Below, piece by piece: positions 23,874 to 55,082 of a stretch of 64,000 bases of DNA; the first letter of the stretch is position 1, and each line of letters starts with the position of its first letter. A program made the translations under genes and the position numbers. Below the pieces are notes generated by a model. That model was not told where the DNA came from. It worked only from the letters and a program-made list of their open reading frames with translations, and ran no database searches. The DNA is from a plasmid, in sequence record NZ_CP067021.1. One strand, written 5' to 3'.

Positions 23874-23885
23874 TATTTAGTCTCC

Positions 23886-25082: not shown

Positions 25083-25918
25083 TACTCAAAGAATTTGGCT
25101 GAAGCATTGGAGTTTGGTGTAGTGCGTTGCATCACATTATTAGCCACCGAATAGTTAGCCAGTGATGAAAGAGTACTTCCAGCCATGTATTTATTTTGAA
25201 AATCAACGCAAGTTGAAGAAGAGCATTCCATCAATCCGACTGGAACAACGTTGTTAGATGCAATTGACGAGTAGTTCAATGCAACAGTCGCTTGCTGTTC
25301 AGAAAGTCGAGAACGAGAAAAAACAAAAGCAGTATCAATGTCGCCATACTGCAGACCATTTGGAATCAAATTACAGACACCCATTTTTGCTTCTTCTACG
25401 CCACACGAGGTCGCCAAGTGAAACGCATATGGTGAGGTTGCTTCATCTGTTGAATTTGAGAAAAGTTTCCCTGAAACGTCTTGCATGTATTTAAAAACGT
25501 TAAAGTCTTTTAAGTTTCTATTGAGATCGGTTTGTTCACGTTCTTCAAGAGCCGTACAAAAAGCTGAATCAGGGAGGGCAGCATTCGTACCAGAATTTAA
25601 AATCGCTTTTTTGATCTCAATATTTTTATCGACACTTTGAATACCAGCAACGATCATTTCTGAATCACGCGTTTGGTTATCAACAATTTGATTTGCACTG
25701 ACCGCTGTTTGTTGAGTAGATACACGCACAGCAGAACGTACCATCAATTGCTGAGCTTGTATTGCAAGCTCAGAAAGGATAGTGCCAAGACTAAAAGCAT
25801 TGGTAAAAAGTGGTACGGATAATAGACCAACCGTTAAAGTACCCACCGCAATTGCTTTAACAGGTGAAAACTGATTAACAGTAATTCTTCTTTTACGCAG
25901 ATTATTTCTATTTTTCAT
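25082..25918 (-). CDS. Secreted protein, 278 aa (paralog C, shorter)
   Basis: Basic N-region MKNRNNLRKRRITVNQF followed by hydrophobic core. Cysteine pattern SAFCT...SCGVEEAKMGVC resembles paralogs A and B. Confidence 0.65.
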   Translation of the reverse strand: MKNRNNLRKRRITVNQFSPVKAIAVGTLTVGLLSVPLFTNAFSLGTILSELAIQAQQLMVRSAVRVSTQQTAVSANQIVDNQTRDSEMIVAGIQSVDKNIEIKKAILNSGTNAALPDSAFCTALEEREQTDLNRNLKDFNVFKYMQDVSGKLFSNSTDEATSPYAFHLATSCGVEEAKMGVCNLIPNGLQYGDIDTAFVFSRSRLSEQQATVALNYSSIASNNVVPVGLMECSSSTCVDFQNKYMAGSTLSSLANYSVANNVMQRTTPNSNASAKFFE

Positions 25919-25930
25919 ACCACCCCCAAC

Positions 25931-26893
25931 TTAAGAGAAAAAGTCTTTAATTGATTGGGTGACAGAAGTAGATTCTGAACTTGAAGTTTTTGCGTTAGAC
26001 GGTGTGCTAGTACTGGCTTTTTGATCAGTTGAATAAGAAACTGTACCAGTCGATCTACTACCATTGATTGTATAAGTATCTCCACCCTCAAAAGCACCGC
26101 TAGGCATAACTAGACCAGGATCAAGTTTACCAAGTTGACCATTCACAGCAGTACCAAGCGCACCCGATACATCAGTGTATTGACCCGCTTTGTTGATTTC
26201 ACCTATAACATCATTCAATGGGCCAACAAGTTCAGTACTTGCAGTTTTCATTGCGTCACACGCTTTTTTAGTCGCGTAATCGACAACCATTTGTTGCGCT
26301 GCATTGATGATTGTATCAAGTGATGGAATAGTCACAGAAAGGTCAATGATTTTACCGATGTCAGCAAAACAGCCACCTTGACTAGCTGGACTGAACATTT
26401 TGTTAATATCGATTGGACGACCCCAAACCGTCATTTGTAGATCTAAGTTGTCTTTAACGACTTTACCGATCCCATCAGTTGCACATGATTCAATATTGGT
26501 TTGAATGTTTTGAGCAGCTGCTTGTTCACCTTTTTTAACCGCCATGAAGTTGTTTTCAGCAGCAGTAGAGTTGAATGACGAATTAGAACTGGTAGACGAA
26601 TAATATCCGCTATTTGAATTCGACAAAGGCGTATCACCACCAGAGCTACTTGCAATGGTCGATGATGTTGCGATGTTTAAGTTACCCATGTTTTGAGTAT
26701 TACTGGTAACAGAAGCAACGGAACTTTGTTGAACTGCAATAGCACTTGAACACCCAATAACGGTAGCAACAAAAATGCTTAAAGCACTTTTAGTTTTAAA
26801 AGCTGGCTTAACATTTTGTAGATTAGGGTTAGTCCTTAAAACATTGCCCCGAATTTGTTGTAGCCTTTTAGCTTTCTTGTGATTGTTACGCAT
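25931..26893 (-). CDS. Secreted or lipoprotein-like Ser/Thr-rich protein (about 320 aa)
   Basis: Start placed at internal Met (MRNNHKKAKRLQQ...) to avoid overlap with the upstream gene; track start is 26938. Hydrophobic segment ends VATVIGC (lipobox-like). Long S/T-rich low-complexity stretches. Confidence 0.55.
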   Translation of the reverse strand: MRNNHKKAKRLQQIRGNVLRTNPNLQNVKPAFKTKSALSIFVATVIGCSSAIAVQQSSVASVTSNTQNMGNLNIATSSTIASSSGGDTPLSNSNSGYYSSTSSNSSFNSTAAENNFMAVKKGEQAAAQNIQTNIESCATDGIGKVVKDNLDLQMTVWGRPIDINKMFSPASQGGCFADIGKIIDLSVTIPSLDTIINAAQQMVVDYATKKACDAMKTASTELVGPLNDVIGEINKAGQYTDVSGALGTAVNGQLGKLDPGLVMPSGAFEGGDTYTINGSRSTGTVSYSTDQKASTSTPSNAKTSSSESTSVTQSIKDFFS

Positions 26894-26918
26894 ATCTAGC
26901 CCTTTAAAAGAGTTATGA

Positions 26919-27725
26919 TTAATGTTTTTTAGAAGCAAGTTCGCAAAGCACTACAACATCTTTTACTACAGCTTCACTACTTAAATATAAGGTAGCTATA
27001 AGGTGTTTTAACTCATATATCCTTTTAGCGAACTTATATATAGAATCATAATACCATTCTTCACCATATTGTAGTATATACTTCTCATTGGTTAAACATA
27101 GTTTTATGAATTCTTTTAAAATAGGACGCTTAAAAATAATAGCTGTCGTAATATATATAAACTGAGTACTAACCAAACACATTAAAGTATTAATTAGCTC
27201 TACTTCCTCTTTTAAGCATTCCTGTAAAACCAATGGCTTTAGGGTTTTAGAAAAACCTTCCTCAGTCACAATATCTTTTAAAAAACCTGAATCCGAGTAC
27301 TTATTTTTCAGAAAATTACTTAATTCATGCACGTTCTTTAAGTAAATATTGATCTGATCTTTAGACGCAGTTTTGAAATGTTCCTCTACACGTTTTGGAT
27401 CGTTTAACGTGATGTCGAGCATTTCAGATTCATTATTTTTTTGATTTAAAAGCACAAAAGCGGTGAAGCTGGTAACTTTGCGTGTTTCGCCAAGATAGCC
27501 ACTACTGCAAGCATTCAAAAAAACAAGGCAATGCTGTTCAGTAAGATACAAGCCGTATTCTTTTGGTGTACCTGATTCAAAGAAATTGAGTGAACGCTTA
27601 TCAAAATGAAAAGTGTTCTCTAAGGTCTGACAAAAGTAGTTAATAGAGTGTACAAAAGCTTCTGGTACAAAGGTTGTAGGCTCTTGAGACAATGCTATGT
27701 TTTGGCTTTCTATGCTCATTCCCAC
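26919..27725 (-). CDS. Hypothetical cytoplasmic protein, 268 aa
   Basis: ORF separated by 3 nt from the upstream gene. Confidence 0.55.
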   Translation of the reverse strand: MGMSIESQNIALSQEPTTFVPEAFVHSINYFCQTLENTFHFDKRSLNFFESGTPKEYGLYLTEQHCLVFLNACSSGYLGETRKVTSFTAFVLLNQKNNESEMLDITLNDPKRVEEHFKTASKDQINIYLKNVHELSNFLKNKYSDSGFLKDIVTEEGFSKTLKPLVLQECLKEEVELINTLMCLVSTQFIYITTAIIFKRPILKEFIKLCLTNEKYILQYGEEWYYDSIYKFAKRIYELKHLIATLYLSSEAVVKDVVVLCELASKKH

Positions 27726-29121: not shown

Positions 29122-32100
29122 TTAACGCCCCAATGTTTGATCATTGTCATGATCGTTTCTACGTGCGACTTCTAAATCTATATGCTTATCAAGGTCACTC
29201 AAAAATTGAGATGTCGTGTTTTTCTCAAGCTTTACTTGGTCTAAGTAGTTTTTAGTATTGAGATTCAAACCATCTTGGAGCGCTTCTAAGCGTAGGCCAG
29301 TTTTATCAAAATCAGCCTCAAGGATCTGATTCACTTCTTTGATTTTGTCCATGTCTTGCTGTTCTAGACGGTGTAACTTCACATCTTCATGAATCGCAGC
29401 GATATAGTGATCGGTTAAGATCTCTTGCTTTAAGTGCTGAAGCGCAATTTCCACGTTTCCTGTTTCAGCAATCACGGCGTTGAAGCTGTCAAAGATTTGA
29501 CCTGTTTCAGCCGAGTTTCTAAATTCAACAATACGAGGCTCAACACTATTAAGGTTTACAAACTTGGCATCACCATACGCAGTAGGTAGTACTAGATGAT
29601 CATCCATACATTCAAAAAGTTGCTTATATTCAGCATTCATAAGATTTGATGCTGCTTGAAGCTTTAAATCTTGTTGTAACGTGTCTAGGCGTTGGTTGAG
29701 ATGTAGAAAGCTTTGAACATACATCTCGTTTTGAGAGTTTTCAGGCGCAACAACGGTTGAGGCCATACCTTTAACAACATTTTTCAGTTGCGTATTTTGA
29801 ATCTGATCAGCAATTTGATTAAGCGCGTTAATGTGATCGGCTTTCACAAGGTTATTGTTTTTCAGTTGTTCAATAAATTGATTTTGTTCAATCACTTTTT
29901 CACTTTCCTTTTCGCTGAATAACGAATCTTTAATTTGTTGTTTCACCTGGTCCAAGTTAGAGAAGAGGTGAAGTACTTCTTGTTCATTGCTGTTATTGAC
30001 TGCATTTAGCAATGTAACAAACACATCATGGCTGATTAGTTGTTGCTGATTATTTTCCGCATTCTGAAATTCAGCAATTTGGCTACGGCTAATGACTTCA
30101 ACACCAACATCATTGATATAGCTTGCACCAATCGGGGAGAGTTGATTATCTGGAGCTTTTACGGCGTAGTACTCGCCTGATTTGCCATCATCTTTGGCGC
30201 ATAGACCAATATATGTATTGCCATCTTGCGTAATGATTTTTGAACCGATGCTATTGAGTGCTGCAGAGGGTTGTAACGTACTCAAGGTTTGAATCAATTC
30301 TTTTTCGCGATTTTGATGAATTGCATTACTTACTGCTTGGTAAACTTCAGGATCTAAATAAGTCACCTGATTGGCAGATTCTTCATTGAGCGCCGTGACA
30401 GTATTCCACTCTAAAATATCTTTACGCGGTATCGTTGTAATACCGGCATTAATAATATCTTCCGTGGTAATTTGACGATCAAGGTTGGTAATGGCCACGG
30501 CGTTGTATTCGGGTGCAATTGATTTATGACCTTCCGAATCTGAAGTCAGTACCACGAATTGACCGTAATCCGTTTTCACCATAGCACCTACAACACTGAG
30601 CTTGCCTTCCAAAATCATTTTTGAAAGTTCAAGTTCACGTTCGGCAGATCTGGCGTAAGTATTAGTCTGTTCTGCAGTATTGTTGATGGTATCGGCTTTG
30701 AGCTTGTCTAAGTATTCGCTTGAAAATTTACCAAGCGCATTTAACTCGTCTATCGGCTCGACAGACTCCAGCTCATACAGTGGAACGGTAGAGGATTCAT
30801 TCACGATGTCTTTAAGATAAAGCACATCTTTTTCAGTGATATTTTCGAGATCTTCAATCACCGAAAGAGGCACAACGATCGCACGTTTATCCAGATTATC
30901 GGAAGCTATATCCAAAACAACCATATTGGTTTGGGTTGTTTCATCTTCATAAACCATACCGACAAACTGTTCAATTTCAGCATTAGAAACATTGTTGTGA
31001 CGGTCTTTAAAGAATGCTTCTAAGTCAGAATCATGATCAACATAAATACTGTCATAAGGGTTCATTGGTTTACCGTCATTGTTTTGGTCTTGGCTTTGCG
31101 GTGCTGATTGAGTTGCCGACTGTTCTGCAGTATTGCCTTTAAACTTACCCAAAAGGTTTGAAAGTTTAGATTTGGCTTTCTTTACTTGATCCGAAATCAT
31201 TTGACCTGATTGATAGGCACGTTGAATAAACTGATCTTTGTATGAAGCTTTGGCTTCTTCAGTCATTTGTTCTGGATCTTGCCCTAATGGATATTCGGCA
31301 CCAAGGAACATACGTGCTTGTTCTAAATACTGAGAACAAATGGGTTCAAAAAAGCGACCTTCAAACTCATGGATCTTTTCAGACTTAATGCCTTCGTGCA
31401 GTTCTTCAATTGAGAGAAACGTTACTTTGTCTTCAATCGTTTCTAAATAGAACGGCGTAATCGGGGTAGGTGCATCGCTACCTTCCACTTGAGGCGGTAA
31501 ATCTGCTTCCTTAACCAGTTTGATAAATGGGGTAGAGGATTCAACACCTTCGACAGAATCCTTACCGACTACATCAATCACGATGTATTGTTCACCGTCA
31601 ATGGCATAGACTTTAGCGACATTTAGATCGAATTCTTCTAAGGTAACGCCGTCACGGTCTTTATTCAGTTGAGTGGTATATGGATCGTTTAAAAGAGGCA
31701 ACATTTGCTCTTTTGAGATCGGTTTTAAAATATCGGCATTCTTACCAGGTTCAGTCAATTTTGATTTATCGGCTGTATTGGCAAGCTGTTCGGGTTGTTG
31801 TGCGTCTGGATGGTTACTTTTAACGGTAACATCAGGATTGATTGGTTTATCCCAAATATTTTTCAGGTTATCAAGGCTTTTGTTCTTGTTGAACATGGCC
31901 ATAATCGCTGCAATGATCAACTTGATTGTTTTCTTAACCAGTTCAATCATGACTGCAATCATTTTTGCACTGAGCGCAGCGAGTTCATCAGCGACCGTGC
32001 GTGGATGGCCGTGGCTATTTTCACGCGCTAAAGGAGGACGTTCGTTACCTTCCTCATTTCGCATATCCTTAAAGCTTTTAGAGGCAACGCTACTTGCAGC

Positions 32101-33528
32101 CAAACTTGCTTTGTCTTGTGGACCACCAGCAATGTTTAATGTGCTCTTTGGTGTACCTTTTGGTGCATTCGGATCAGCTGATTCAACATCTTCCTTTACT
32201 GTCTCTTTAGTCTTCTGATTTTCTTTATGTTCTTTCAAAAGTAGAGCAGCTTGCAACTGGTCGCTATGTTCACGGGTTTCTAATAACTGAATTACTTCCT
32301 TGGTTAACGTGTCCGTATTGAATTCAAGATAGTGAATCTCAAGTTGTTCAAGTCGAGCAGCTGTATGGTCGCTATTCACACGCCATTGATCCATGACGAT
32401 AGTTTTTGGCACTAAGCCAAGTTCTTCAGCTTCAATCCCACGAATTAAGCAAAAGTCACGCACTTGGCGCATCAATGCGTTAATTTGGTTTTTATCGGTT
32501 AATTCACCTGAAAAATAGGTATTCGGTGCACCCGTAACTTCGTTGTAGATCTGCTGCTTTGCTTCACGCACGACTTGGTTTTGGTTAATCAAGCCTTCAA
32601 TCGCGAATTGACGATTACTCAGGAAGTTGAGGGCATTTTCTTTAGTTGCACCCTTCAGGCTTAAACCATAGTAGGGCTGAGTGACAAAAGATTTTGTCTC
32701 AAAGTTAAAGAGGGTTTTTTCAGCCACTTGAACGGCTTCAAATGGATTCTCTTCTTTGGAAAGGAGGAAATCAGGATCATTGTCTGATAGGAATAATTTA
32801 GAGTCTGCAGTTGTATATACACGGTCTTCAACTGGCAATGAACTGTTATTTTCAGCAATATTGCCTAATCCTTGGTCCAGTGCGTTTTTAGTCTGGATTT
32901 TATTCAGATCCGCAATAAACTTAAGATCATCATCATTCTGCAGATCAAGCCCGATGTCTGCAAAGAATTCTAATTGACTGGCTGGATCTCTTTGCTCAAG
33001 TGCATCAAATACTTTACCAATCAGAACAGGATCAAGTTCAGCTAAATCATTGACAGTGACAGCGGAAAGATCAAACGTGTTTTCAGGAATGATGGACTGT
33101 TCATTCTCGTAGATCGGGTAGCTACTACGCTCATAATCACCTTCGTCAAAAAACATCGGTTCATCATCGTTCAACCGAGTATCTTCAAGAGGGGGAGCGT
33201 AATCATAATCTGGGTGCCCAGGAGGTACAGAGTTACCGCCCATAGGCTGATCATATTGATACCCATCATCTTGCATGACTGGCGGTTCTTCCATTAATGG
33301 AGGTTCAGATAGGGGATCTTTGGGATGTGGTTCAGACTGGTATTGTTGCGATTGATCTTGTGCAACATTGTTTTGTTGTGGCGTAGGCTGGATGGATTGA
33401 AATTCCACGCCGTCCAAACTTAAATCATCCCACTGTTCCAGGCCCTCATTGAAAGTTAATGATTGGCCGTCTTGCAGTTGATCAAGTGTTTGCTCGTCAA
33501 AATTATCTTGTTTAGGGCTTTGGTCCAT
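29122..33528 (-). CDS. Giant protein, 1468 aa: acidic Gln/Pro/Tyr-rich N-terminus, one central hydrophobic helix, coiled-coil-like C-terminal half
   Basis: 4407-nt open frame. N-terminal EQWDDLSLDGVEF resembles the W-x-D-L-S-x-x-G-V signature of the other giants. Central segment LAALSAKMIAVMIELVKKTIKLIIAAIMAMF. Confidence 0.8.
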   Translation of the reverse strand: MDQSPKQDNFDEQTLDQLQDGQSLTFNEGLEQWDDLSLDGVEFQSIQPTPQQNNVAQDQSQQYQSEPHPKDPLSEPPLMEEPPVMQDDGYQYDQPMGGNSVPPGHPDYDYAPPLEDTRLNDDEPMFFDEGDYERSSYPIYENEQSIIPENTFDLSAVTVNDLAELDPVLIGKVFDALEQRDPASQLEFFADIGLDLQNDDDLKFIADLNKIQTKNALDQGLGNIAENNSSLPVEDRVYTTADSKLFLSDNDPDFLLSKEENPFEAVQVAEKTLFNFETKSFVTQPYYGLSLKGATKENALNFLSNRQFAIEGLINQNQVVREAKQQIYNEVTGAPNTYFSGELTDKNQINALMRQVRDFCLIRGIEAEELGLVPKTIVMDQWRVNSDHTAARLEQLEIHYLEFNTDTLTKEVIQLLETREHSDQLQAALLLKEHKENQKTKETVKEDVESADPNAPKGTPKSTLNIAGGPQDKASLAASSVASKSFKDMRNEEGNERPPLARENSHGHPRTVADELAALSAKMIAVMIELVKKTIKLIIAAIMAMFNKNKSLDNLKNIWDKPINPDVTVKSNHPDAQQPEQLANTADKSKLTEPGKNADILKPISKEQMLPLLNDPYTTQLNKDRDGVTLEEFDLNVAKVYAIDGEQYIVIDVVGKDSVEGVESSTPFIKLVKEADLPPQVEGSDAPTPITPFYLETIEDKVTFLSIEELHEGIKSEKIHEFEGRFFEPICSQYLEQARMFLGAEYPLGQDPEQMTEEAKASYKDQFIQRAYQSGQMISDQVKKAKSKLSNLLGKFKGNTAEQSATQSAPQSQDQNNDGKPMNPYDSIYVDHDSDLEAFFKDRHNNVSNAEIEQFVGMVYEDETTQTNMVVLDIASDNLDKRAIVVPLSVIEDLENITEKDVLYLKDIVNESSTVPLYELESVEPIDELNALGKFSSEYLDKLKADTINNTAEQTNTYARSAERELELSKMILEGKLSVVGAMVKTDYGQFVVLTSDSEGHKSIAPEYNAVAITNLDRQITTEDIINAGITTIPRKDILEWNTVTALNEESANQVTYLDPEVYQAVSNAIHQNREKELIQTLSTLQPSAALNSIGSKIITQDGNTYIGLCAKDDGKSGEYYAVKAPDNQLSPIGASYINDVGVEVISRSQIAEFQNAENNQQQLISHDVFVTLLNAVNNSNEQEVLHLFSNLDQVKQQIKDSLFSEKESEKVIEQNQFIEQLKNNNLVKADHINALNQIADQIQNTQLKNVVKGMASTVVAPENSQNEMYVQSFLHLNQRLDTLQQDLKLQAASNLMNAEYKQLFECMDDHLVLPTAYGDAKFVNLNSVEPRIVEFRNSAETGQIFDSFNAVIAETGNVEIALQHLKQEILTDHYIAAIHEDVKLHRLEQQDMDKIKEVNQILEADFDKTGLRLEALQDGLNLNTKNYLDQVKLEKNTTSQFLSDLDKHIDLEVARRNDHDNDQTLGR

Positions 33529-33782
33529 ATTTGATCCTTATGACAGGTGGCCTTTCTGATTTTAAGAGTCCTTTTTAGAATCTGTATCAACATTCCAAAT
33601 AAAGTCTTCTTTAAAGTCAGAATTAAAACCAGTTGTGATGTCTAATTCACTGTCAAAATCCACTAAATCTGAGTTATTAGAAGATTCCTCTAAGGGATTA
33701 GAGTTGCACATAAAATACCTGTATTTGTTTTTTAAAACGTCAATGTGATCGTCACAGATATGATACATGGTATATACGAACT

Positions 33783-33840: not shown

Positions 33841-36800
33841 TTAGAAAGATAATTGCTGGATTTCTTGATCGTTATCTAGGGTTTTACCCTCATGTAACTC
33901 AGCCTTATAAGCTGGCTCTTCTGCAGGATTAAGCATACGGTTAATTTCATTTAAAAAGTAACCATTACCATCAGGAAGCTTAGATTTTAAATCCAAAAAG
34001 GCAGCTTCAATTTTGGTTGTACTGTCCAGCTCGTCAACAAAGCGTTCAACATCCTTGAGATCAAGCGCAAATCTAAACTCATTACGGCCTGGCTCAGTAA
34101 AGTGGATGTTCAACGATTCATCTGTTTTACCGCCTTTAGGATCATGGAATACGTTGGTATTCGACATAAAACGATTGAACTGTTTTGCAACAGATTTTAC
34201 CGTCACATTAAAGCAGTCTGAACCGTTGTAGTAGAACTCAATACTTGCTTTCTTGTACGGGAAATTAACCTTAGTACCCACATAGTTATTGCGGTTGAAA
34301 TCAATGTTTACAGGCAATTGATTAAAGAAGTTCGCAATCTCTTTAACTTGCTTAAACGTCACTTGGTTTTCAAGAGAGCTTTCAAACAAGTCAGTTGGTG
34401 TATTTGATGGCAATAATAACGCACGGTTACGCATACCATCAGCATCGGTAAATATAACGGTTGAATGTCGTAGATCTAGTGAGCTGACAATCTTATGTGC
34501 CTTGAACATATTGCCCGTTAAGGTAATCGCTTGTCGTGTGACATCACCAGACGGCGCTTTTTCAAAATAGGTACGCGTATAACGGGAATAATTGTTTTGT
34601 TCAGTAAATAAGTTCACCAAGGGTTGACGATCCTCAACATGACGTCTATTCACATCAGCATAAGAATAAAATTCAGGATTGAAGCGTTTTAGGATAATAC
34701 GTCCTTTTTCACTCACTGGAGCTACCCAATCCAAGTCTTGCTTGGCATTTTGCATGGTGTAATTGATCAGTGGAACTTTAAACGACTTCTTATCACCAGG
34801 GTAAACCAAATCAAGCTTAACCGCATTCGGTGTGATTGCACCTCCACGTAACGGCGGTAGGTCTAGACGTAGCAAAGCACCTGTTTTGTGATCTGGCGTC
34901 ACTTCATCATCAAAAAGACTAGGTTTTGAGATAAGGAACAATAACCCATGCGCTGAATGACCTTCTTTTTCGTTCCTTTCCATAGAACGAGCCAAGAATT
35001 TTAGATCCTGAACAATTCGATACATGCGATCAAAGTTAGAGGTCAAAATAGGATCATTGGCTAGATAAACCGCTTCAGCTACTTTCTCAAAGGCATCTGC
35101 AGAGTGATCATCAGGTTTACGAAATTGAATATCATCAATGTGTTTTACATTGGCTTCAACAACACCGAAATGATCAAATACTTCGTGTCGATAATCACGA
35201 ATTACTTCACCACGCATTTGCCCACTTTTGAAAAATAACTTTTGCTTAGCAAAGCCTTCATATTTTTGGTACATCAATGCCTCAAAGTTATAGGCATAGT
35301 GTAGTAGTCCGTTTACCGTTTCATTGATGTTTTCATTGATACGTTTAAATTGACGCACCAGATAATCATCACTTTCTTTGAACATGAGTTTTAGATTGTC
35401 AGCACGTAATGGCTCAACATGTTCAATGTATTGCAGACCTTCAAAACGCACAGGTAGATCAAAGGTATTGATCTTGGCTGCTTCTGTTTCTGAAGTCACG
35501 GTAAAGAAGTTGTCCTTCACTTCAAACTCACGGACTTTTTTAGCTTTCCAGTCTAAAAAGTTGGTCTTGAGTGGGTTACGACCCAACAAGTCTAATTCAC
35601 GGATCTTATCGTTATAGTCAACAACCAAGTCTTGATAAACCTGTTCTTGCTGACTAATCGGCATCAAAATCAGTTTAGATAGCAACTGGTTCACATGATA
35701 GTTTTGCGCCGTGCGATACGATGGTCCTTTTTCATCATCCGAAATATCAATATCAAGTGTGTTCGCCAAGTTCACGTTATTTTTCAAATAGTCCAACGAT
35801 ACCCGGTTGCCAATGTAGTTGAGCATGTCAGGATAATCGTTTTCGTTAAACTTGGTTTCTGAGTTGGCAGAGACGTTCGCTGATAGGGTAGACAGTTTAC
35901 GCATCATCATTAAGTGCATACGTGTTTCTGCTGGAATACCCGAATCTACTGTCGTCATAATCGGATGTGATTCTTCACCACGGCGACCCACACGACCGAT
36001 CATCTGAATCGTATCGGTAGAGTTCTCAGGTTTTTGCAAGAAAAACAACTCACGTTGGCGCAAGTGATCCGATGGAATTGTAGGATCAGGGTTTTTGGCT
36101 GCATGTAGAGAAATACCCGTACAACCAGAGCGAGTCACAATAACAACATCGATTTCACCAGATTGGAATTTTGATTGAACCAAAATCTTACCTTGTGTCG
36201 TATTGTTCTCTTGTTTATTAACCTTCCATTTGCCGTCTCTTGTTTCCGTTAAGTGGATCTGACGGCCAGAGATTTCATCAATCTTGAAGCCAGCTTTTGT
36301 CACCTTGTTACGTAGTACGTCCAAAGGCATCAAAGGTAGATCAGGGAACTTTTGAATCTTTTCTTTGATACGATCCAAAATGATTTTATACGGACTTACC
36401 ACTGGATCGCCGTTTTCATTAAATGTCACTTCCGTACTGAGCTTCTTAACGAACGAGTTACCGTAGTTATCTTCAGCTTTCACCACATCGATGCGATCTA
36501 ACATCACTTCAAGCAAGTCACGGAATTGTGGGAGTTCATCTAAAACAGAAATTTGACTTTGCAGATAGCTACCGCGCTTATCTTCAAGCTTAGTCAATTC
36601 CTTTTGAATATTTTTCGCTGCTTTTTCATCGCCAGCGTCACGGTTTTCTTTGATCATGAGTTTTTGAAGCTCATTTTCAAGAAATTCAATTTCTGACGAT
36701 ACCGACTTGAAGTTATTAAACGCTTTTTCTTTTTCAGGCGAATCAGCGGTAACGTCTTGCGCCGTATCTGCTTTTAAAATCGCTTCCATGCGACTTTGCA

Positions 36801-39800
36801 TCAAAATGTTGAATAGACTCTCACCCGTATTTTCCAAACCAATCACGGGCTTTCTACCCTCATGTAATGCCTGAATCACAGCATCACTTGTAGAGTCAGT
36901 TTTCAATGCCAATAGGAATTGCTTTTGGATCTGGTACATTCGAGATCCAAAGTTCATCACACTCAAACTTAAACGGTTTTTCGGATCGTCTGAATCCTGA
37001 TGAAAGTCTAAATTGGCAACAGCATCATCATCATTGGCAATGTTTTCTAGCGCATCGAGGCGAATATCTTTAGAAAATTTCACCATGTCCGTCAAGATGT
37101 CAGAAAGAACATCTGAGTAATTGTGAAATTTCTTAATTTCCTCTTCAGTTGGCACAAAGGTTTGAATGGTAATGTGCGAGAGATCTTGCTCTCTACGAAT
37201 CATGGCAGAGCTGTCTACCAAACCTTCAGAAATAAACTCCAAAATTGGACCATCTGCATTTTCGATAACCTTTTGTAAGTCATTACGAGATACGGATCGA
37301 GGGAACAATTTATGGAAGAATTCAAGATTTTCAGGTTTCTTAATTGCCGATGCAGACTGGAAATTAATTAGATTGGTCTGATCAATAACATCTAAGAAAA
37401 ATTGACTTGTAGCTGATTTCAAGGATGCTGCACGGTGCGTTTCATCCATCACCAAAACAGTGTCTTGATTAATAAAACGAGTCAATAACGCACGTTTCCG
37501 GTTTGGTCGGTTAAATTGGCTATACGTTGCCAATACCAAGTCATGTTGCGCTGGAATATCTTCAATTTCCTTAGGCAGATCTTGGCCAGTGAATAAAACC
37601 TCTTCAGTACCAAAGCGGTTAATCACAGCATCCGAGTTAAAGATAAACGGATCTTTAAAGAACTTGTCACTGTCTGTAGCAACAATATCACGCCAAATGT
37701 CGTTCAAGAGTTGCGTTGTATCTGTAAGGAAAACAGGGGGCTTTCCTCTTAACGCACTATATCGTAAACACGCAGCTGCAATACGACCTTTACCTAAACC
37801 CGTCTGGTCGCCAATAAGCACAGGTAAGTTTTGGTCAAAACGTAAAATGATATGGGCAACCGCATCGACCTGTTCACATGCAAAAGCGGACTTTAGTGCA
37901 TCAAAATTGTCATATTGCAATTTCTTAGCGACATAGGCATCAACAAGAGTAGGGTAGTTACCATTATCGACTTCAGCTTGGAAATTGATACCCCCAAAAC
38001 CTAATACATTTTGGATGTGTGTAGTCAATTGAGCATTTGCCTGATTAATCGCTTTAATCTGGTTTTTAGCCACTAAAGCAATTGGCTCAGATGCCATAGA
38101 CATCGGTATATACTTAACTTGGTATATATTTTCCGGAGTTGGTTCTGTTGTGTTTTCAGCATTAGGAACAGGAACAATCGGCTGTAAATTTGATTGGTCA
38201 GATTCAACAGTCGGTTCTTCTTTTTGCTCAGTACCGATCGCTAATTCAGAATTTAACTTAGCAATCTCTTCAGCAGTTAAACCCGGTTCCTGTTTTACTT
38301 GCTCTACCGCTGGTTCTTCAGCTGGTGTTTGTTCAGGTGTTTCACCCTCATTGGTCGCCGTGGTATCACCTACTTGAAGATTAACGTCATCGTCAAGGTC
38401 TTCATCCTGATTTTGGTTCTCGTGCGGATTCTTTACCTCAGGCACGAAATCATTGTCATTTTCATTTTCAAACGTTGGTGTAGCTTCAGTTGGTGTAGGT
38501 ACATCATCATCTGAACTGGTTGTTTGCGTACTAACTTCAACGGTTCCAAAGTCAAAAGAAACTTTATTCGGTTTTGATTTAGGTTTACGACCAAACATCG
38601 GTTTTGGTTTGACAGCTTCCTCTTGCTTAATCTCTTCTTCTTTAGCGACCACGACTTCATCAAACATAGTGACTGCAGACGTAGGCGTTACACTTGATGC
38701 AATATCTTCAAGTGGCGAAACAGGCTGTTCATCACCTAGACTGGCAAACAAATCGTCATTTTCTTTTTCAACAGGCTTAACCTCAACAACAGGTTCAACC
38801 ACTGGTGCTTGTTGTGCTTGTTGCTCAACTGGAGTCGGAGTAGTTGGCTTGAAGTATAGATCCTTATTCGGATTCAAACGATTATAGATTACGTTATTAG
38901 CCCATCCCCAAAGTTCGTCATAGTCCGTAATGACTTTCAACTTATCTGGTACCACAGAAGATTGGTAAGTTTGTAGTAACGCTTGTTCGTTTTTACGATT
39001 GCCTACCACTAACATACGAACATTTTGATTAGCGCCGTTTCGTGCATATGCATTGCCGTGGATTTCTACAACCGCCTCAACTTCATAATGCTTATAGAGA
39101 TAATTAAGTAAATTCTTTGATTTACGCTCAACCGTACCATCTGAAATCTGTTTATCTGAGCCAATAATGAAAACTGAACGCCCTTGATCGTTTCGTGCGT
39201 TTAGTGATTTAACCAGAATGGCATGGTCCAATTTATCCGTACTGAACCAGACGTTTTCTGATGGATCTACCAATAATGGGTTTGGATCTACGCCGTTACG
39301 CTGTTGAACCAAAATTGGTGCAACACGTTCTAGTTTATCCATAGCACCAAAAGGAGGGTTGGCAATCACATAGTCAACTTTTTGCTTAAACGTTTGCTCA
39401 AAATCAATTTGTGTAGCATCTGCAGTAACAACCGTGCATTCATAATTTTGAGTCAGTGCTTTTGTACGTTCAGCACGTTTGGGATCTAACTCAACCGCAT
39501 AGACAGAAGCATTACGCTCTTGGGTTAATAAACCGATTAAAGATCCATTACCCACAGTTGGCTCGAGCACGGAAAAGTTTTGTTTTGTTCGGTTATCACC
39601 CTCAATCAATAAGCGCTGAGCCACAAGTGACATCGGGATTGGAGTCGAATATTGCTGTAACATACGAATCGTATTGTTTCGCATGGTCTTAGTCGGCATG
39701 CGATTGTATAACGCTAAACTCGTTTTAAATGAGCTCTCAGTAAAATCAAGCTCACCTAACTTTTCGACCATCACTGTTTCAAGCGCTTCTTCTGCAGTAT

Positions 39801-40473
39801 GGATCTGTTTATCTGTTACCTTGGATACATCAACGTCAGCATTTTTGGCTTGCGTGATTAGAGCTAAAAACTTTAAAAAGTCCTGGTGATTATGGCTCTT
39901 TGTTTCATGTTCTAATTGATAGATATAGCCTCTTAAGCATTCTTTTAAATCTTTTTGCTTGGTCGCACGTAAGTACAGACTAGACGGCTGATCATTAGGA
40001 CCTTCAGGTATTTGCGTACCTTGGGCATTCACGTAAAAACGGTTATGAGCTGAAGCATAGATTTTGTTGCCATCAGAGTTATAACCGAGTGGAGTTGCAC
40101 TATTCAACGCAACGTTCAATCGTTGTGGCACCAATGTTTTTGCTTGGGCATTGAATAAATCATGCAATTCTTGGCGAGTCGCAAGCACACTACGGATAAA
40201 TTCTTTTGGAATACCCAAAACTTCATGAAACAGTCTTGGTTTGATCGTTTCATTCAAATTGTATTGATACAAGTGACCGTCAAAGTGAGGATAAGCCTCA
40301 AACTTCATCGGTGTAAAACCAATGTTATTCAAATTTTCTTTAGATAGTTTTTTTTGAACGTCCAATAAAAGTAATTGGCTATCCGTCTGGCCAACACGCC
40401 GTACATCGAGATATACACCAGCTTGTGATAAGTCGATCCATTTAATTTTTTCGTTTAAATCATGAGTAGTCAT
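33841..40473 (-). CDS. DarB-like giant fusion protein, 2210 aa: N-terminal gamma-class N6-adenine DNA methyltransferase, then an acidic Pro/Thr/Glu-rich linker, a DExH (SF2/SNF2-like) helicase and a C-terminal domain of about 700 aa of unknown function
   Basis: Methyltransferase motif I (VLEPTVGNGSL) followed by motif IV (VIANPPFG, DNA about 39345-39365). Helicase motif I (TGLGKGR, about 37771-37815), motif II (VMDETHRA, about 37421-37455), motif VI (QMIGRVGRRG, about 35971-36003). Low-complexity linker about 38150-38900. N-terminal KWIDLSQAGVYLDV signature. Confidence 0.9.
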   Translation of the reverse strand: MTTHDLNEKIKWIDLSQAGVYLDVRRVGQTDSQLLLLDVQKKLSKENLNNIGFTPMKFEAYPHFDGHLYQYNLNETIKPRLFHEVLGIPKEFIRSVLATRQELHDLFNAQAKTLVPQRLNVALNSATPLGYNSDGNKIYASAHNRFYVNAQGTQIPEGPNDQPSSLYLRATKQKDLKECLRGYIYQLEHETKSHNHQDFLKFLALITQAKNADVDVSKVTDKQIHTAEEALETVMVEKLGELDFTESSFKTSLALYNRMPTKTMRNNTIRMLQQYSTPIPMSLVAQRLLIEGDNRTKQNFSVLEPTVGNGSLIGLLTQERNASVYAVELDPKRAERTKALTQNYECTVVTADATQIDFEQTFKQKVDYVIANPPFGAMDKLERVAPILVQQRNGVDPNPLLVDPSENVWFSTDKLDHAILVKSLNARNDQGRSVFIIGSDKQISDGTVERKSKNLLNYLYKHYEVEAVVEIHGNAYARNGANQNVRMLVVGNRKNEQALLQTYQSSVVPDKLKVITDYDELWGWANNVIYNRLNPNKDLYFKPTTPTPVEQQAQQAPVVEPVVEVKPVEKENDDLFASLGDEQPVSPLEDIASSVTPTSAVTMFDEVVVAKEEEIKQEEAVKPKPMFGRKPKSKPNKVSFDFGTVEVSTQTTSSDDDVPTPTEATPTFENENDNDFVPEVKNPHENQNQDEDLDDDVNLQVGDTTATNEGETPEQTPAEEPAVEQVKQEPGLTAEEIAKLNSELAIGTEQKEEPTVESDQSNLQPIVPVPNAENTTEPTPENIYQVKYIPMSMASEPIALVAKNQIKAINQANAQLTTHIQNVLGFGGINFQAEVDNGNYPTLVDAYVAKKLQYDNFDALKSAFACEQVDAVAHIILRFDQNLPVLIGDQTGLGKGRIAAACLRYSALRGKPPVFLTDTTQLLNDIWRDIVATDSDKFFKDPFIFNSDAVINRFGTEEVLFTGQDLPKEIEDIPAQHDLVLATYSQFNRPNRKRALLTRFINQDTVLVMDETHRAASLKSATSQFFLDVIDQTNLINFQSASAIKKPENLEFFHKLFPRSVSRNDLQKVIENADGPILEFISEGLVDSSAMIRREQDLSHITIQTFVPTEEEIKKFHNYSDVLSDILTDMVKFSKDIRLDALENIANDDDAVANLDFHQDSDDPKNRLSLSVMNFGSRMYQIQKQFLLALKTDSTSDAVIQALHEGRKPVIGLENTGESLFNILMQSRMEAILKADTAQDVTADSPEKEKAFNNFKSVSSEIEFLENELQKLMIKENRDAGDEKAAKNIQKELTKLEDKRGSYLQSQISVLDELPQFRDLLEVMLDRIDVVKAEDNYGNSFVKKLSTEVTFNENGDPVVSPYKIILDRIKEKIQKFPDLPLMPLDVLRNKVTKAGFKIDEISGRQIHLTETRDGKWKVNKQENNTTQGKILVQSKFQSGEIDVVIVTRSGCTGISLHAAKNPDPTIPSDHLRQRELFFLQKPENSTDTIQMIGRVGRRGEESHPIMTTVDSGIPAETRMHLMMMRKLSTLSANVSANSETKFNENDYPDMLNYIGNRVSLDYLKNNVNLANTLDIDISDDEKGPSYRTAQNYHVNQLLSKLILMPISQQEQVYQDLVVDYNDKIRELDLLGRNPLKTNFLDWKAKKVREFEVKDNFFTVTSETEAAKINTFDLPVRFEGLQYIEHVEPLRADNLKLMFKESDDYLVRQFKRINENINETVNGLLHYAYNFEALMYQKYEGFAKQKLFFKSGQMRGEVIRDYRHEVFDHFGVVEANVKHIDDIQFRKPDDHSADAFEKVAEAVYLANDPILTSNFDRMYRIVQDLKFLARSMERNEKEGHSAHGLLFLISKPSLFDDEVTPDHKTGALLRLDLPPLRGGAITPNAVKLDLVYPGDKKSFKVPLINYTMQNAKQDLDWVAPVSEKGRIILKRFNPEFYSYADVNRRHVEDRQPLVNLFTEQNNYSRYTRTYFEKAPSGDVTRQAITLTGNMFKAHKIVSSLDLRHSTVIFTDADGMRNRALLLPSNTPTDLFESSLENQVTFKQVKEIANFFNQLPVNIDFNRNNYVGTKVNFPYKKASIEFYYNGSDCFNVTVKSVAKQFNRFMSNTNVFHDPKGGKTDESLNIHFTEPGRNEFRFALDLKDVERFVDELDSTTKIEAAFLDLKSKLPDGNGYFLNEINRMLNPAEEPAYKAELHEGKTLDNDQEIQQLSF

Positions 40474-40504: not shown

Positions 40505-42139
40505 TTAAAAAGTCATGTCGTTATAGACATCAGAAGTCGCAGCCTTTTCTTGGCTTTTCTTAACATCCATTTCTGGCTGTCTGACTTTCATCATTAACTC
40601 TTGCGGATCAGGTAAAAGATCGTGGTTGAAGTTCTTAGATAACGGACTATCGATTGAAGCTTTATGTTGCTGTACATGCTCTACCGTAATTTCTGAAAAG
40701 TTCAACGCATTCATACGGGTTTGAGTAAGTTCAACAGGCTCGATAAACGAGACAAAACAATTATTCGAGTTCCGTTGGTGTGGTTGAATAACAATAAACG
40801 CTTCAGCAAATTGCTGTTTTGCATGCGTCAATTTATTCATGGTCTGACGATCAACTTGACTTAAAAATTGAGGATTTAAGTCGTGCGGTTTTGGATTGCC
40901 GTAGTCATCGGTAAATTGATTCACTAGGGGAGGTGCACCAACACCACGAACACCCTCACCAGTACGTAAATCTATTTCTGGATCTACCTTGCGAAAACCA
41001 GCGTGAGGCGTTTTATTGTTGAAAAATTTCTTTAAGAACGTGTCTTTGTAAAGCGCACCTAGTTGTAGTTGTTGGCCATGATAAACCTCAGGCAGTAATT
41101 TTTGACTCACCAAGCCAGCGTAAAGACGTTTTAAATTTTGATTTTTTTCTTTGTCTACATCTTCATTGTAGAACACTTTAATTTGTCGATCGCCAAGTAA
41201 TGCAAACAGGGCAATACGGGCCTGGTCCATAACATAAACGTTCTGAGCCTGTTTATCGAACTGGTCTTTTTCATACTGGTTGGATGGTACAAAATTTGGA
41301 TCAAATGTTGCGGTGTGAAAGTCATTGCCGTTCAAAATATCTTTGATACTTTCAATCGGATCTTTAGCAACCCGATAAGACTTTTTAGTTTTATCAATAC
41401 CGCCACGTTCCATCAACGGATCTGGCTTAGCGAATTGCTTAACACTTTCACGATCAGCACTGTCATAGGTTGGAATCAATGGGATTGTAGTTAATACAGA
41501 ACCAGACTCATAGCGCACAACAATTTTTGAAAATGGAATGCGCTCAGGTTGGTTGTCAGTACTATTCGATAAAGATTTAACAAGAAGCTGTAAATTATTT
41601 TTAATAATAGCGTTATGAAGTGCTGGAGAATTAATTTTTACATTGGGCACTTGCATATGTGCTGCATCTTCAATGATTTGAGCTTTAACAAAGAAATCGC
41701 CGTTTTTTTGTTGATGCACATTGATAGAAGTGACTGCTTTGATTAATTGTGAATTCGGGTTGTTACTCATTACGTTGCACCACTGAGCAACATAAGTTTT
41801 ATAACCGTCAAGAGATTCGTAGGGTGAGTCAACACATTTGTCAAAACAGATAATTCGACCACGGTTAGCACCGCGATTATGTGTGTCTAATGAAGTACGT
41901 TGGTTACGTCCAGAATCAAATTTTGCGTGGACTTCATCTACTGAAACATTCTCAGTATGATGCTTGTTGAGTTTATTAATGATCTTCGTGAATTCTTCAG
42001 ATGAACTCATTCGTATGCGAACTGGTTCATTGGTAGACATATCAAAGCCGTATGCATACAGCTCGTCTTGTTCATCATGTTTGTAAAATTGATCTACAGT
42101 CATGACGATACGTTTAATCGTATTATCACTTTTACTCAT
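40505..42139 (-). CDS. Hypothetical protein, 544 aa; first gene of the long minus-strand block, next to the origin-like region (candidate initiator or element-specific function)
   Basis: ORF, 31-nt gap to the MTase-helicase gene; no recognised motif. Confidence 0.65.
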   Translation of the reverse strand: MSKSDNTIKRIVMTVDQFYKHDEQDELYAYGFDMSTNEPVRIRMSSSEEFTKIINKLNKHHTENVSVDEVHAKFDSGRNQRTSLDTHNRGANRGRIICFDKCVDSPYESLDGYKTYVAQWCNVMSNNPNSQLIKAVTSINVHQQKNGDFFVKAQIIEDAAHMQVPNVKINSPALHNAIIKNNLQLLVKSLSNSTDNQPERIPFSKIVVRYESGSVLTTIPLIPTYDSADRESVKQFAKPDPLMERGGIDKTKKSYRVAKDPIESIKDILNGNDFHTATFDPNFVPSNQYEKDQFDKQAQNVYVMDQARIALFALLGDRQIKVFYNEDVDKEKNQNLKRLYAGLVSQKLLPEVYHGQQLQLGALYKDTFLKKFFNNKTPHAGFRKVDPEIDLRTGEGVRGVGAPPLVNQFTDDYGNPKPHDLNPQFLSQVDRQTMNKLTHAKQQFAEAFIVIQPHQRNSNNCFVSFIEPVELTQTRMNALNFSEITVEHVQQHKASIDSPLSKNFNHDLLPDPQELMMKVRQPEMDVKKSQEKAATSDVYNDMTF

Positions 42140-42397
42140 TTCTTAAATTCCACGCTTTATATTTTTGATTGCTGGTCATTGACTCAAGCTATTTATAAAA
42201 TACTACAAAACCTCATTGGTATATACTAAGGAGGCAAATAAAAAATTAAAAAATATATTAAAAAGTTTAAGAGTAAATTTTTAAAAAGAAATTTTTTGTT
42301 TATTATCTTTCTAATTAAGGGAAGTTAATTAGGGACATTTTTTATGCTTATTTTTCATGATATTACAGGATTAGTACGGAAAAACACAAATGGTACG

Positions 42398-42439
42398 AGC
42401 GAAAATCAAATTCATTTGAGCGCAAATTGAATTTGAATT
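42398..42439. repeat. Pair of 21-bp direct repeats (GCGAAAATCAAATTCATTTGA / GCGCAAATTGAATTTGAATTT), iteron-like
   Basis: Read directly; same unit as the pair at 42660-42701. Confidence 0.6.
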
Positions 42440-42477
42440 TTTAGAAAATAAGGCGTTTTTAGCTGGTTTTTGATGTT

Positions 42478-42508
42478 TTTATCCACTTTCCTATTAAATT
42501 CTATCCAC
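42478..42508 (+). promoter_or_regulatory. Two DnaA-box-like sites (TTATCCACT at 42478-42486, CTATCCACA at 42500-42508), same orientation, 22 bp apart
   Basis: Each matches the consensus TTATCCACA at 8 of 9 positions. They lie between the two 21-bp repeat pairs, downstream of a very AT-rich stretch at about 42200-42340. Confidence 0.45.
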
Positions 42509-42659
42509 AAATTAAGTTCTTGTATATTAGAATGAATTTAAAAATATGAGTAAAATATTGTTCATTTTTTAGCTTTTTGCAATATTGGAAATTTGCAAAC
42601 TAGCAAGTGTTGTAAGTCGCTGTTTATAATAAAATTAAATAGAATAAAAAATACTTCCA

Positions 42660-42701
42660 GCGCAAATTAAATTCATTTGAGCGCAAATTAAATTCAAAAC
42701 G
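42660..42701. repeat. Pair of 21-bp direct repeats (GCGCAAATTAAATTCATTTGA / GCGCAAATTAAATTCAAAACG), iteron-like
   Basis: Read directly; 17-19 of 21 identical to the units at 42398-42439. Confidence 0.6.
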
Positions 42702-42811
42702 TTGCGGATAACTTCTCCAATTTCCTGAGAGCCTTGATAATAAAGACTTTCAGATTTTATGAGGAATAGCCCTTATATATGACCCAACGATCGCTATTTA
42801 GCTTGTTTTAC

Positions 42812-43712
42812 GACAAATCAATAACTTACGCCATTAGGACGGAAGAAAGTTTACAACCCATTTATAAAAAACTTTCGCTGAGTTCAGACTATAACAGAAA
42901 ATCAATGAGTTACGCCATTAGGACGGAAGAAAGTTTACATCCACTTATAAAAAACTTTCGCTCGTATTTTGACACAACTATAAATCAATAACTTACGTCA
43001 TTAGGACGGAAGAAAGTTTACAACCCATTTATAAAAAACTTTCGCTGGAAGTTAGGTACAGCCAAAAAGTTATAACCTAACCTTAAAACATACTAAACAT
43101 ACTATCTATGATAGTTGAGCTATTGGATCTGGACAAAAAAGTAAAATCAATAACTTACGCTATTAGGACGGAAGAAAGTTTACAACCCATTTATAAAAAA
43201 CTTTCGCTCGTATTTTGGCACCACTATAAATCAACAACTTACATCATTAGGACGGAAGAAAGTTTACACCCACTTATAAAAAACTTTCGCTCGAAATTTG
43301 CCAGCAATATAAATCAACAACTTACATCATTAGGACGGAAGAAAGTTTACAACCCATTTATAAAAAACTTTCGCTCGAAATTTGCCAGCACTATAAATCA
43401 ACAACTTACATCATTAGGACGGAAGAAAGTTTACAACCCATTTATAAAAAACTTTCGCTCGAAATTTGCCAGCACTATAAATCAACAACTTACATCATTA
43501 GGACGGAAGAAAGTTTACAACCCATTTATAAAAAAGTTTCGCTCGAAATTTGCCAGCACTATAAATCAACAACTTACATCATTAGGACGGAAGAAAGTTT
43601 ACAACCCATTTATAAAAAAGTTTCGCTCGTATTTTGGCACCACTATAAAACAATAACTTACGTCATTAGGACGGAAGAAAGTTTACAAACCATTTATAAA
43701 AAAGTTTCGCTG
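42812..43712. repeat. Array of ten 84-bp tandem direct repeats (3 copies, a unique gap of about 78 bp, then 7 copies), each with palindrome GAAAGTTT-N16-AAACTTTC. Candidate iterons or partition centromere.
   Basis: TTAGGACGG unit starts at 42834, 42917, 43001, 43163, 43247, 43330, 43414, 43498, 43582, 43666. Copies 5-9 are nearly identical. Confidence 0.85.
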
Positions 43713-52082: not shown

Positions 52083-52571
52083 ATGGAAATGTTAGATCCA
52101 TCAAACACAAACCCTGGGCTCTTTTTAGTCATAATGGCTACGGCAATTGGTACCATACTTTTTGGTTTTTTAATTGTCGCTTTAATTGCACGATATAAGT
52201 TCAAGATTAGAGTTACGGTATCTAGTTTTATAGCTGCAGTTACTTTATCTGTATTTAGCTTTATATGCTTTGGTTCACTTGGTCCGATGGAACCTAAATA
52301 CAGTACTTCAGTTGTTCAGCTTTATGCGTTGGGCTTACTGGCTGGTACTTTAATATTAAATATAGTTCTTCTGAAATTATTCAGCCCTAAAACTATTGAA
52401 CAGTTAGCTTTGAAAGGTTTTAATAAGTCAGAAAATGAACAAAAAGAGCATTACAAAAACATCTTAAAAGAGTTTAAATGTATTACTGATTTGGAAGATA
52501 AAAACAAGCTTAATAAGCGCAGTTTTAACTTGTTAAATGTTTTTAAACATAAAGGAAAACAAAATGTTTGA
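52083..52571 (+). CDS. Membrane protein, 162 aa (three hydrophobic helices)
   Basis: ORF with hydrophobic N-terminal two-thirds. Confidence 0.5.
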   Translation: MEMLDPSNTNPGLFLVIMATAIGTILFGFLIVALIARYKFKIRVTVSSFIAAVTLSVFSFICFGSLGPMEPKYSTSVVQLYALGLLAGTLILNIVLLKLFSPKTIEQLALKGFNKSENEQKEHYKNILKEFKCITDLEDKNKLNKRSFNLLNVFKHKGKQNV

Positions 52572-55060: not shown

Positions 55061-55082
55061 ACATCAATATATGGAGTATTTT

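Follow-up and report, generated by a model that had tools for sequence, protein, structure and literature searches.

The window analyzed here is a 64,000-nucleotide stretch of an Acinetobacter plasmid (NZ_CP067021.1). One gene on its minus strand (33841..40473) encodes a protein of 2210 amino acids (aa), in which a predicted N6-adenine DNA methylase is followed by a predicted helicase. Its sequence places the protein among the polyvalent proteins of the methylase-helicase dyad class, in the Strawberry-notch (Sno) variant of that class. We lean toward the view that it is an anti-restriction enzyme, delivered or expressed early in conjugation, and that this dyad protein would protect the incoming plasmid.

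The gene is already public under a domain-based name. RefSeq lists its product as "strawberry notch C-terminal domain-containing protein", and one GenBank record has it as "N-6 DNA methylase". The architectural class, including the Sno variant, has also been published. What is added here is the relation to phage P1 DarB by direct comparison, the definition of N- and C-terminal modules private to the family, the finding that the otherwise variable spacer stays acidic, and a conserved gene module that ties the protein, on MPF_I plasmids, to a partner gene, to IcmW, and to LPD1 proteins.

The coding sequence is a single open reading frame (ORF) with an ATG start codon and zero internal stops. As the DNA is about 40% GC, a chance origin of this 6.6-kb open frame was ruled out. 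An earlier note on this DNA had described the product as an N6-adenine methylase-DExH helicase fusion with an acidic linker. Family models and composition bore this description out, and every motif that the note quoted was found: EPTVGNGSL (aa 304-312), NPPF (aa 372-375), GLGKGR (aa 892-897), DETH (aa 1010-1013), and QMIGRVGRRG (aa 1490-1499).

Domain organization of the methylase-helicase protein

The methylase domain occupies aa 215-545 (38839..39831, minus strand), as delimited by Pfam, profile searches, an AlphaFold 2 (AF2) model, and hhalign. A TP motif, QQYSTP (aa 273-278), precedes motif I (EPTVGNGSL), which in turn precedes motif IV (NPPF). This is the gamma-class order, as had been proposed. 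When the full-length protein was scanned against Pfam, N6_Mtase was masked and only a sub-threshold match to MTS was reported (0.0091). The isolated aa 215-545 segment matched N6_Mtase with 28.1 bits (cut-off 20.4), as did 18 of the 21 homologous segments with their own scores. A profile of the same segment found HsdM of EcoR124II with an E value of 1.8e-13. The AF2 model of the domain had a predicted local distance difference test score (pLDDT) of 89.5 and a predicted template modeling score (pTM) of 0.90. Its best Foldseek matches were M.BseCI, CamA, type I HsdM, and M.TaqI, with E values from 1e-10 to 1e-7. In an alignment of 21 homologues, the S-T-P, E..G.G.L, and N-P-P-F residues were invariant. 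From these matches, the domain is a predicted N6-adenine methylase of the EcoKI/TaqI-like type, with its catalytic motifs intact.

No target-recognition domain was seen in the methylase domain. In the AF2 model, aa 215-545 consisted of the core fold and flanking helices, after which the disordered spacer follows. Pfam scans of the window revealed no HsdS-like gene near the methylase-helicase gene. Methylation specificity could sit in the N- or C-terminal modules.

The helicase has two lobes. Lobe 1 (aa 791-1060; 37294..38103, minus strand) contains the Walker A motif GLGKGR, the DETH motif, and a motif III of sequence SAS, and it was matched by Pfam AAA_34 and ResIII. Lobe 2 (aa 1397-1640; 35554..36285, minus strand) is the Strawberry-notch C-terminal domain, matched by Pfam Helicase_C_4, and contains motif V (TRSGCTGISLH) and motif VI (QMIGRVGRRG). 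In the full-length Pfam scan, Helicase_C_4 scored 57.2 bits (2.9e-15; cut-off 30.5) and ResIII scored 34 bits (3.4e-8; cut-off 22.5), and AAA_34 was barely over its cut-off of 27 with 27.9 bits (1.4e-6). Both N6_Mtase and ResIII, which are among the families that the earlier note had pointed to, were recovered. Between the two lobes lies a charged region (aa 1061-1396; 36286..37293, minus strand) delimited by the Pfam matches on its two sides. It contains 18% Asp plus Glu, and its helical character is assigned by position only; a multihelical insert between the lobes is usual in the SWI2/SNF2 clade according to the passages of PMC5512222 on that clade.

Seventeen helicase residues were invariant in 51 homologues: G892, G894, K895, G896, R897, D1010, E1011, H1013, G1450, T1452, G1453, S1455, H1457, Q1490, G1493, R1494, and R1497. 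On alignment, the catalytic residues of both domains were present, those of the methylase in 21 homologues and those of the helicase in 51. On its AAA_34 plus Helicase_C_4 composition, the helicase is assigned to the Sno type, a predicted ATPase of the SWI2/SNF2 clade with intact motifs.

The methylase and the helicase are separated by an acidic, low-hydrophobicity spacer rich in Pro, Val, and Thr (aa 546-790; 38104..38838, minus strand), recognized by its composition. It corresponds to the long linker rich in Pro, Thr, Glu, and Val that had been noticed earlier. It contains 22.4% Asp plus Glu and 6.5% Lys plus Arg, giving a net charge of -39. Pro and Val each account for 11.4% and Thr for 9.4% of its residues, and the hydrophobic and aromatic residues FILMWY account for 11%, compared with 24-28% in the rest of the protein. 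Among 87 homologues, the spacer varied in length from 0 to about 840 aa and could be aligned within close relatives alone. Of the spacers of at least 30 aa (n = 70), 94% were net negative. Acidity and disorder of the spacer, not its sequence, appear to be kept by the family. Within the Acinetobacter clade, short conserved islands (DDLL..LGD, SAV..FD, and FDF..GTVE) flank a Lys-rich patch inside the acidic spacer, VKPKPMFGRKPKSKPNKVSF (aa 621-640; 38554-38613, minus strand), which has a net charge of +7 and is itself conserved in that clade.

The first 214 or so residues of the protein (aa 1-214; 39832..40473, minus strand) form an N-terminal domain, which is defined by family conservation and is not mentioned in the earlier note. 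About 50 homologues aligned over it at 20-30% identity, and W12, G52, G130, N132, R145, and F146 were invariant in its profile. It had no match in PDB or Pfam.

The other end of the protein is a family-specific C-terminal module (aa 1641-2210 with the stop codon; 33841..35553, minus strand). Because Helicase_C_4 reaches aa 1625, this uncharacterized region is about 570 aa long, shorter than the earlier estimate of about 700 aa. It has a conserved core, LTGNMF...FTDADGMRNR (about aa 1985-2016), and follows the helicase in all homologues of the closer clade. In an exhaustive search of 1.84 billion representatives, the profile of the module matched 581 clusters at 50% identity. Nearly all of these matches were the C-terminus of proteins of 1600-2500 aa, indicating that it is a private module of the family and not a shuffled domain. 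A word-indexed search with the C-terminal 571 aa gave zero matches even though an identical full-length protein (P0001) was in the collection, so that search was uninformative. Homologues of the whole protein were numerous and ranged from 1500 to 3800 aa. Those of the closer clade have all five parts, and some homologues also carry the polyvalent-protein domains PF18857, PF18823, PF18798, PF18763, and PF18819.

Comparison with phage P1 DarB and the dyad class

The earlier note had matched the architecture and size of the protein to those of P1 DarB. The similarity held for the size (2210 and 2255 aa), for the methylase, and for the layout, in which an N-terminal EcoKI/TaqI-like methylase with a TP motif is followed by a superfamily 2 (SF2) helicase and a long C-terminal region. 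With hhalign, the methylase aligned with that of DarB at a probability of 97% (E = 1.2e-10); the alignment starts at the TP motif, takes in motifs I and IV, and reaches the late "GT..V" strand. In both cases, a mobile element that enters restricting hosts carries the protein.

The similarity did not hold for the helicase family, the N- and C-terminal modules, the full-length comparison, or the phage context. Full-length BLASTP against DarB gave a best E value of 0.064, and P1 was absent from the tblastn matches among 50,697 phage records. The Pfam content of DarB is N6_Mtase/Eco57I, SNF2-rel_dom, and Helicase_C. The helicase profile aligned with DarB over motifs V-VI only (probability 8%), the C-terminal profile gave no alignment (probability 0.5%), and the N-terminal profile had no similarity to the DarB N-terminus. 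Motif IV is NVPF in DarB and NPPF in this protein. DarB sits in the virion head and acts together with DarA, Hdf, and the Ddr proteins, whereas this gene is on a conjugative plasmid and lies by a type IVB secretion system (T4BSS). No phage gene was found in the window, PHROG matched nothing besides the methylase, and neither the Dar partners (DarA, Hdf, DdrA, DdrB, and Ulx) nor any sign of virion association was found there. As the methylase is homologous and the helicase and the end modules are not, the protein belongs to the class of DarB and was rejected as a DarB orthologue.

A phage origin was also rejected. The only long matches to "phage" records were to contigs of Acinetobacter phage MD-2021a, which have the same plasmid synteny and, over the 29 kb that were inspected, lack structural phage genes. 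One of them (L008; CAKLQH020000019.1) encodes a 458-aa protein, a 1986-aa methylase-helicase, a 683-aa protein, mid-size proteins, and a 1244-aa protein. It also holds TetR, IS4 transposase, and H-NS genes. This record is probably a plasmid contig that was misfiled under phages.

The class to which the protein is assigned was described by Iyer, Burroughs, Anand, de Souza, and Aravind in 2017 (PMC5512222). Their passages on polyvalent proteins define a dyad of a methyltransferase (MTase) and an SF2 helicase with DarB as its archetype, note Sno-like ATPases in a few polyvalent proteins, and propose the ATPase as the motor that takes the methylase along incoming DNA. The same passages argue that polyvalent proteins, as a class, travel with the DNA into the recipient. 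The protein studied here has the features that those passages give for the dyad: a gamma-class adenine methylase stands upstream of a SWI2/SNF2-clade ATPase, the gene is on a conjugative element with type IV secretion system (T4SS) genes near it, and LPD1 proteins are among its neighbors.

The protein differs from the usual dyad in several respects. The N-terminal LPD36 that those passages describe (four helices with a GXGU motif) was not recognized; what stands ahead of the TP motif is a different domain of 214 aa and three helices. No GXGU motif was found in aa 215-272 by motif and DarB profile comparisons, which a very divergent LPD36 could escape. The protein also has none of the MPTase, ART, or ArdC-N effector domains, so it is a dyad with private modules and not a many-domain polyvalent protein. 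Finally, synteny with IcmW and a partner gene is not among the passages of PMC5512222 found by keyword.

Two further protein groups share parts of this architecture. Like the eukaryotic and bacterial Sno (SBNO) helicases, the helicase has AAA_34 followed by Helicase_C_4 and a long insert between the lobes; eukaryotic Sno proteins are transcription co-regulators without a methylase, whereas the ATPase here is fused to a DNA methylase on a plasmid. HsdM (EcoR124II and EcoKI) is the top sequence-profile match of the methylase and has its catalytic motifs in common with it. Unlike the type I enzymes, this protein is one polypeptide with another helicase family, and no HsdS-like subunit, target-recognition domain, or HsdR nuclease accompanies it.

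Gene neighborhood and host plasmid

The methylase-helicase gene lies in a run of at least 16 co-directional genes that encode, among others, proteins of 2418, 2428, and 1468 aa. The earlier note had placed it in an operon with giant proteins. The giant proteins are there, and "operon" stands here for a co-directional layout that is known from gene order alone. Directly upstream is a partner gene of 544 aa (40505..42139, minus strand), which ends 31 nt ahead of the methylase-helicase start codon. Its product had no Pfam, NCBIfam, PADLOC, or PHROG match. A hidden Markov model (HMM) built from the genes directly upstream of homologues in five other loci matched it with an E value of 3.2e-20. By this recurrence, the partner and the methylase-helicase are a conserved gene pair.

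The pair belongs to a larger module in relatives. On a Xanthomonas citri plasmid contig and two metagenomic plasmid contigs (L004, L009, and L010), a gene of about 420-470 aa is followed by the MTase-Sno gene, IcmW, four genes of about 250-400 aa, an M23 peptidase gene, two further genes, and a gene for a large LPD1 protein, which closes the module in all three. IcmW, which is the substrate adaptor of Dot/Icm systems, was directly after the homologue in three loci, with 51.5, 38.9, and 48.5 bits (cut-off 27). In Burkholderia, a DotM_C gene was found upstream of the homologue. Genes for RepA, SSB, SLT, or TraG-like proteins also lie near the module in relatives.

In the window, four mid-size genes of 335, 278, 398, and 413 aa (22632..26938, minus strand) are syntenic with the four genes of the relatives. 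They had no family match, and the last three of them are paralogous. HMMs made from their syntenic counterparts in L004, L009, and L010 matched the four with E values of 1.5e-25, 2.6e-20, 1.2e-81, and 1.6e-77, and BLASTP agreed. These genes may be unrecognized T4BSS components or substrates. In the Acinetobacter plasmids, extra giants are intercalated in the module. One is a downstream protein of 1468 aa (29122..33528, minus strand) with no family match in Pfam, NCBIfam, PADLOC, or PHROG. The other two carry LPD1, a domain associated with large polyvalent proteins, and are proteins of 2428 aa (15137..22423, minus strand; Pfam LPD1 3.1e-8, NCBIfam CLCA_X 2.1e-31) and 2418 aa (6902..14158, minus strand; Pfam LPD1 8.8e-8, CLCA_X 3.6e-25). 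A third LPD1 protein of 546 aa is encoded on the plus strand (61752-63392). The M23 peptidase gene of plasmid pXBB1-9 is located past DotA.

Downstream of the methylase-helicase gene, a gap of 312 nt before the 1468-aa gene contains a small, strongly acidic ORF of 49 aa, MCNSNPLEESSNNSDLVDFDSELDITTGFNSDFKEDFIWNVDTDSKKDS (33562..33711, minus strand), with 13 Asp or Glu and 3 Lys residues. An ORF of the same length and in the same place, with about 60% identity, is present in the A. gandensis plasmid CP183910.1 (L012:12723-12872). The gene table of pXBB1-9, which PLSDB lists incompletely, has no such ORF. The ORF could encode a small DNA-mimic-like or adaptor protein. No minus-strand terminator was found in the gap. 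A promoter scan around the methylase-helicase gene gave weak matches only, fewer than in shuffled sequence.

Upstream of the gene block lies an AT-rich divergent intergenic region (42140..43107), presumed to be regulatory; the GC fraction from 42 to 44 kb is 0.306. It contains three direct repeats of about 71 nt with a spacing of 83-84 bp (42810-43047). A second repeated element, GAGCGCAAATT.AATTCATTTGAGCGCAAATT, is present at 42388-42433 and 42649-42694. The repeats resemble iterons or operators, or could be oriT- or centromere-like sites.

The plasmid is a conjugative megaplasmid of Acinetobacter group III-4a, in line with the earlier remark that such proteins occur on conjugative plasmids. 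The segment 39001-64000 is 99.8% identical to NZ_CP043309.1 and NZ_CP032285.1. Plasmids of this group conjugate between species via an MPF_I (IncI/Dot-Icm-like) system (PMC8490738). More than 50 large Acinetobacter plasmids (pXBB1-9 and its relatives), which come from at least 11 species, encode the protein at 99.5-99.9% identity. Among 65 full-length copies, identity was at least 99% in 50 and at least 95% in 64, with the remaining one at 90-95%. In pXBB1-9, the giant-gene block continues directly into DotA/TraY, DotD/TraH, DotI, DotH, DotG, and partition genes. This contiguity with the Dot genes places the methylase-helicase gene in the transfer backbone, not in an accessory island.

The transfer region of pXBB1-9 also contains a UvrD-helicase-domain gene (103995-105551) and an HNH endonuclease gene (125998-126885; both in record positions). 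These two genes might be parts of an unconventional DNA-processing system in III-4a plasmids. On the right side of the window, an ISXO2-like (IS1595 family) transposase and an IS3-family (ISAba14-like) integrase-core ORF (54368-56215, plus strand) interrupt the backbone, to the right of an M48 peptidase gene (52537-53343). Related plasmids diverge at this site, where pXBB1-9 has tet(Y), IS26, and other insertions. The third LPD1 gene lies beyond this insertion-sequence-containing stretch. Rfam detected no RNA family in the window.

A possible role in conjugation

The anti-restriction role that we favor is the conjugative counterpart of the one proposed for P1 DarB. The protein would be made in the donor with the transfer genes and carried to the recipient via the T4BSS, or it would be expressed very early in the recipient. 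Its ATPase would track along the newly double-stranded plasmid DNA and carry the methylase with it, so that adenines would be methylated with broad specificity. A further effect of the motor may be to displace type I restriction complexes as they translocate. In this way, the plasmid would escape restriction across the many Acinetobacter species that it enters. Orphan methylases are enriched in the leading regions of plasmids and have been proposed as protectors of incoming DNA (PMC11541004), which fits this role. PADLOC found no defense-system match except the methylase, which also speaks for it. Further points in its favor are the Dot genes that adjoin the gene block and, in relatives, the position of IcmW beside the gene and the LPD1 proteins in the module.

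Several observations weigh against this role. The mechanism of DarB is itself undefined, and apparent effects of DarB on plasmids can be DNA-mediated artefacts (PMC11109961). The III-4a megaplasmids have no identified relaxase or oriT (PMC8490738), so the position of the gene relative to a leading region is not assessable. No IcmW was found in the gene block of this window, either by Pfam (E up to 1) or by an HMM of three IcmW relatives. Acidic tails were seen on the giant proteins, and an acidic C-terminal signal of the Dot/Icm E-block kind was considered; a family test found no enrichment (averaged over 67 family members, the net charge of the final 30 aa was -0.94, vs. a background of -0.72), and the signal was rejected. 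Lastly, a distant subfamily of about 1560 aa, which lacks the spacer, is encoded in a chromosomal island with Wadjet, Mrr, and integrase genes and not by a T4SS.

IncI1 plasmids export large Sog polypeptides into the recipient, and IcmSW-dependent Legionella effectors are another example of proteins exported by type IVB systems. The protein resembles such IncI/Dot-Icm exported proteins in that its plasmid has an MPF_I system (PMC8490738) and in that IcmW directly follows the gene in relatives. It differs from them in having no IcmW in this window, no C-terminal acidic signal, and no similarity to primases. Injection of the protein through the T4BSS specifically is doubtful in our estimate. A wider proposal is that the partner, MTase-Sno, IcmW (in relatives), the four mid-size genes, and the LPD1 giants together form a conjugation-borne Dar counterpart. 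The giants would be injected by IncI/Dot-Icm-type plasmids via the T4BSS, and the MTase-Sno would be specificity-free and motor-driven, coating the megaplasmid with N6-methyladenine within minutes. We put this forward tentatively, as a possibility short of an even chance.

It is unlikely, in our view, that the same enzyme is not translocated at all and acts only once the plasmid has expressed it, either in the donor or in a transconjugant that is already established. In those cells, it would be a processive orphan methylase that keeps a plasmid of 200-400 kb methylated against resident or incoming restriction systems, or an epigenetic regulator. The synteny with IcmW and LPD1 that is conserved in relatives argues against this, as does the delivery with DNA for which the passages of PMC5512222 on the polyvalent class argue; protection that waits on the expression of a 6.6-kb gene would also come late. 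On the other side, a protein of 2210 aa is a demanding secretion substrate, and the missing IcmW and C-terminal signal are consistent with a protein that stays in the cell. Plasmid orphan methylases are also common and often expressed from incoming DNA (PMC11541004).

Less likely still, the protein is an establishment factor and does not counter restriction. Its motor would clear the incoming DNA of proteins such as H-NS-like silencers, SSB, or RecA, or remodel them there, or it would aid DNA processing in a plasmid family without an identified relaxase (PMC8490738), and its methylase would mark self DNA. This would agree with the position of the gene in the transfer backbone and with the conserved, uncharacterized N- and C-terminal modules. 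SWI2/SNF2 enzymes are remodelers of protein-DNA complexes, with RapA as a bacterial example in the passages of PMC5512222 on these ATPases.

A plasmid-borne defense or exclusion system (type I/ISP-, BREX-, or DISARM-like) that attacks unmethylated foreign DNA (phages or rival plasmids) and does not protect the plasmid is improbable: a methylase with an SF2 helicase is the core of several restriction or defense systems, PADLOC matched the MADS methylase mad2 (1.1e-10), and the distant subfamily neighbors Wadjet and Mrr genes, but the mad2 match spans only the methylase core (aa 270-497), the helicase and seven neighbors match no defense model, neither the protein nor its neighbors were found to contain a nuclease domain, and the genes in synteny are those of the T4BSS and of polyvalent proteins, not defense partners. 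With a match at the methylase level alone, the known systems covered by PADLOC (type I/ISP restriction-modification, BREX, DISARM, and MADS) were rejected.

Among clinical, animal, and environmental Acinetobacter species, tet(X), NDM-1, OXA-58, and further resistance genes are spread by the III-4a megaplasmids, whose backbone is almost entirely annotated as "hypothetical". The methylase-helicase gene is intact and highly conserved on these plasmids (at least 99% identity in 50 of the 65 copies), and this conservation marks it as a strong host-range factor candidate. It may plausibly determine the host range of these clinically important resistance megaplasmids and could serve as a tractable model of DarB-type enzymes. 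Dyad proteins of this kind are widespread; the private C-terminal module by itself accounts for 581 clusters at 50% identity. If the module is indeed a conjugative counterpart of the Dar system, it would help explain the spread of one plasmid lineage among at least 11 Acinetobacter species, and it would offer a tractable system for the action of DarB-type enzymes.

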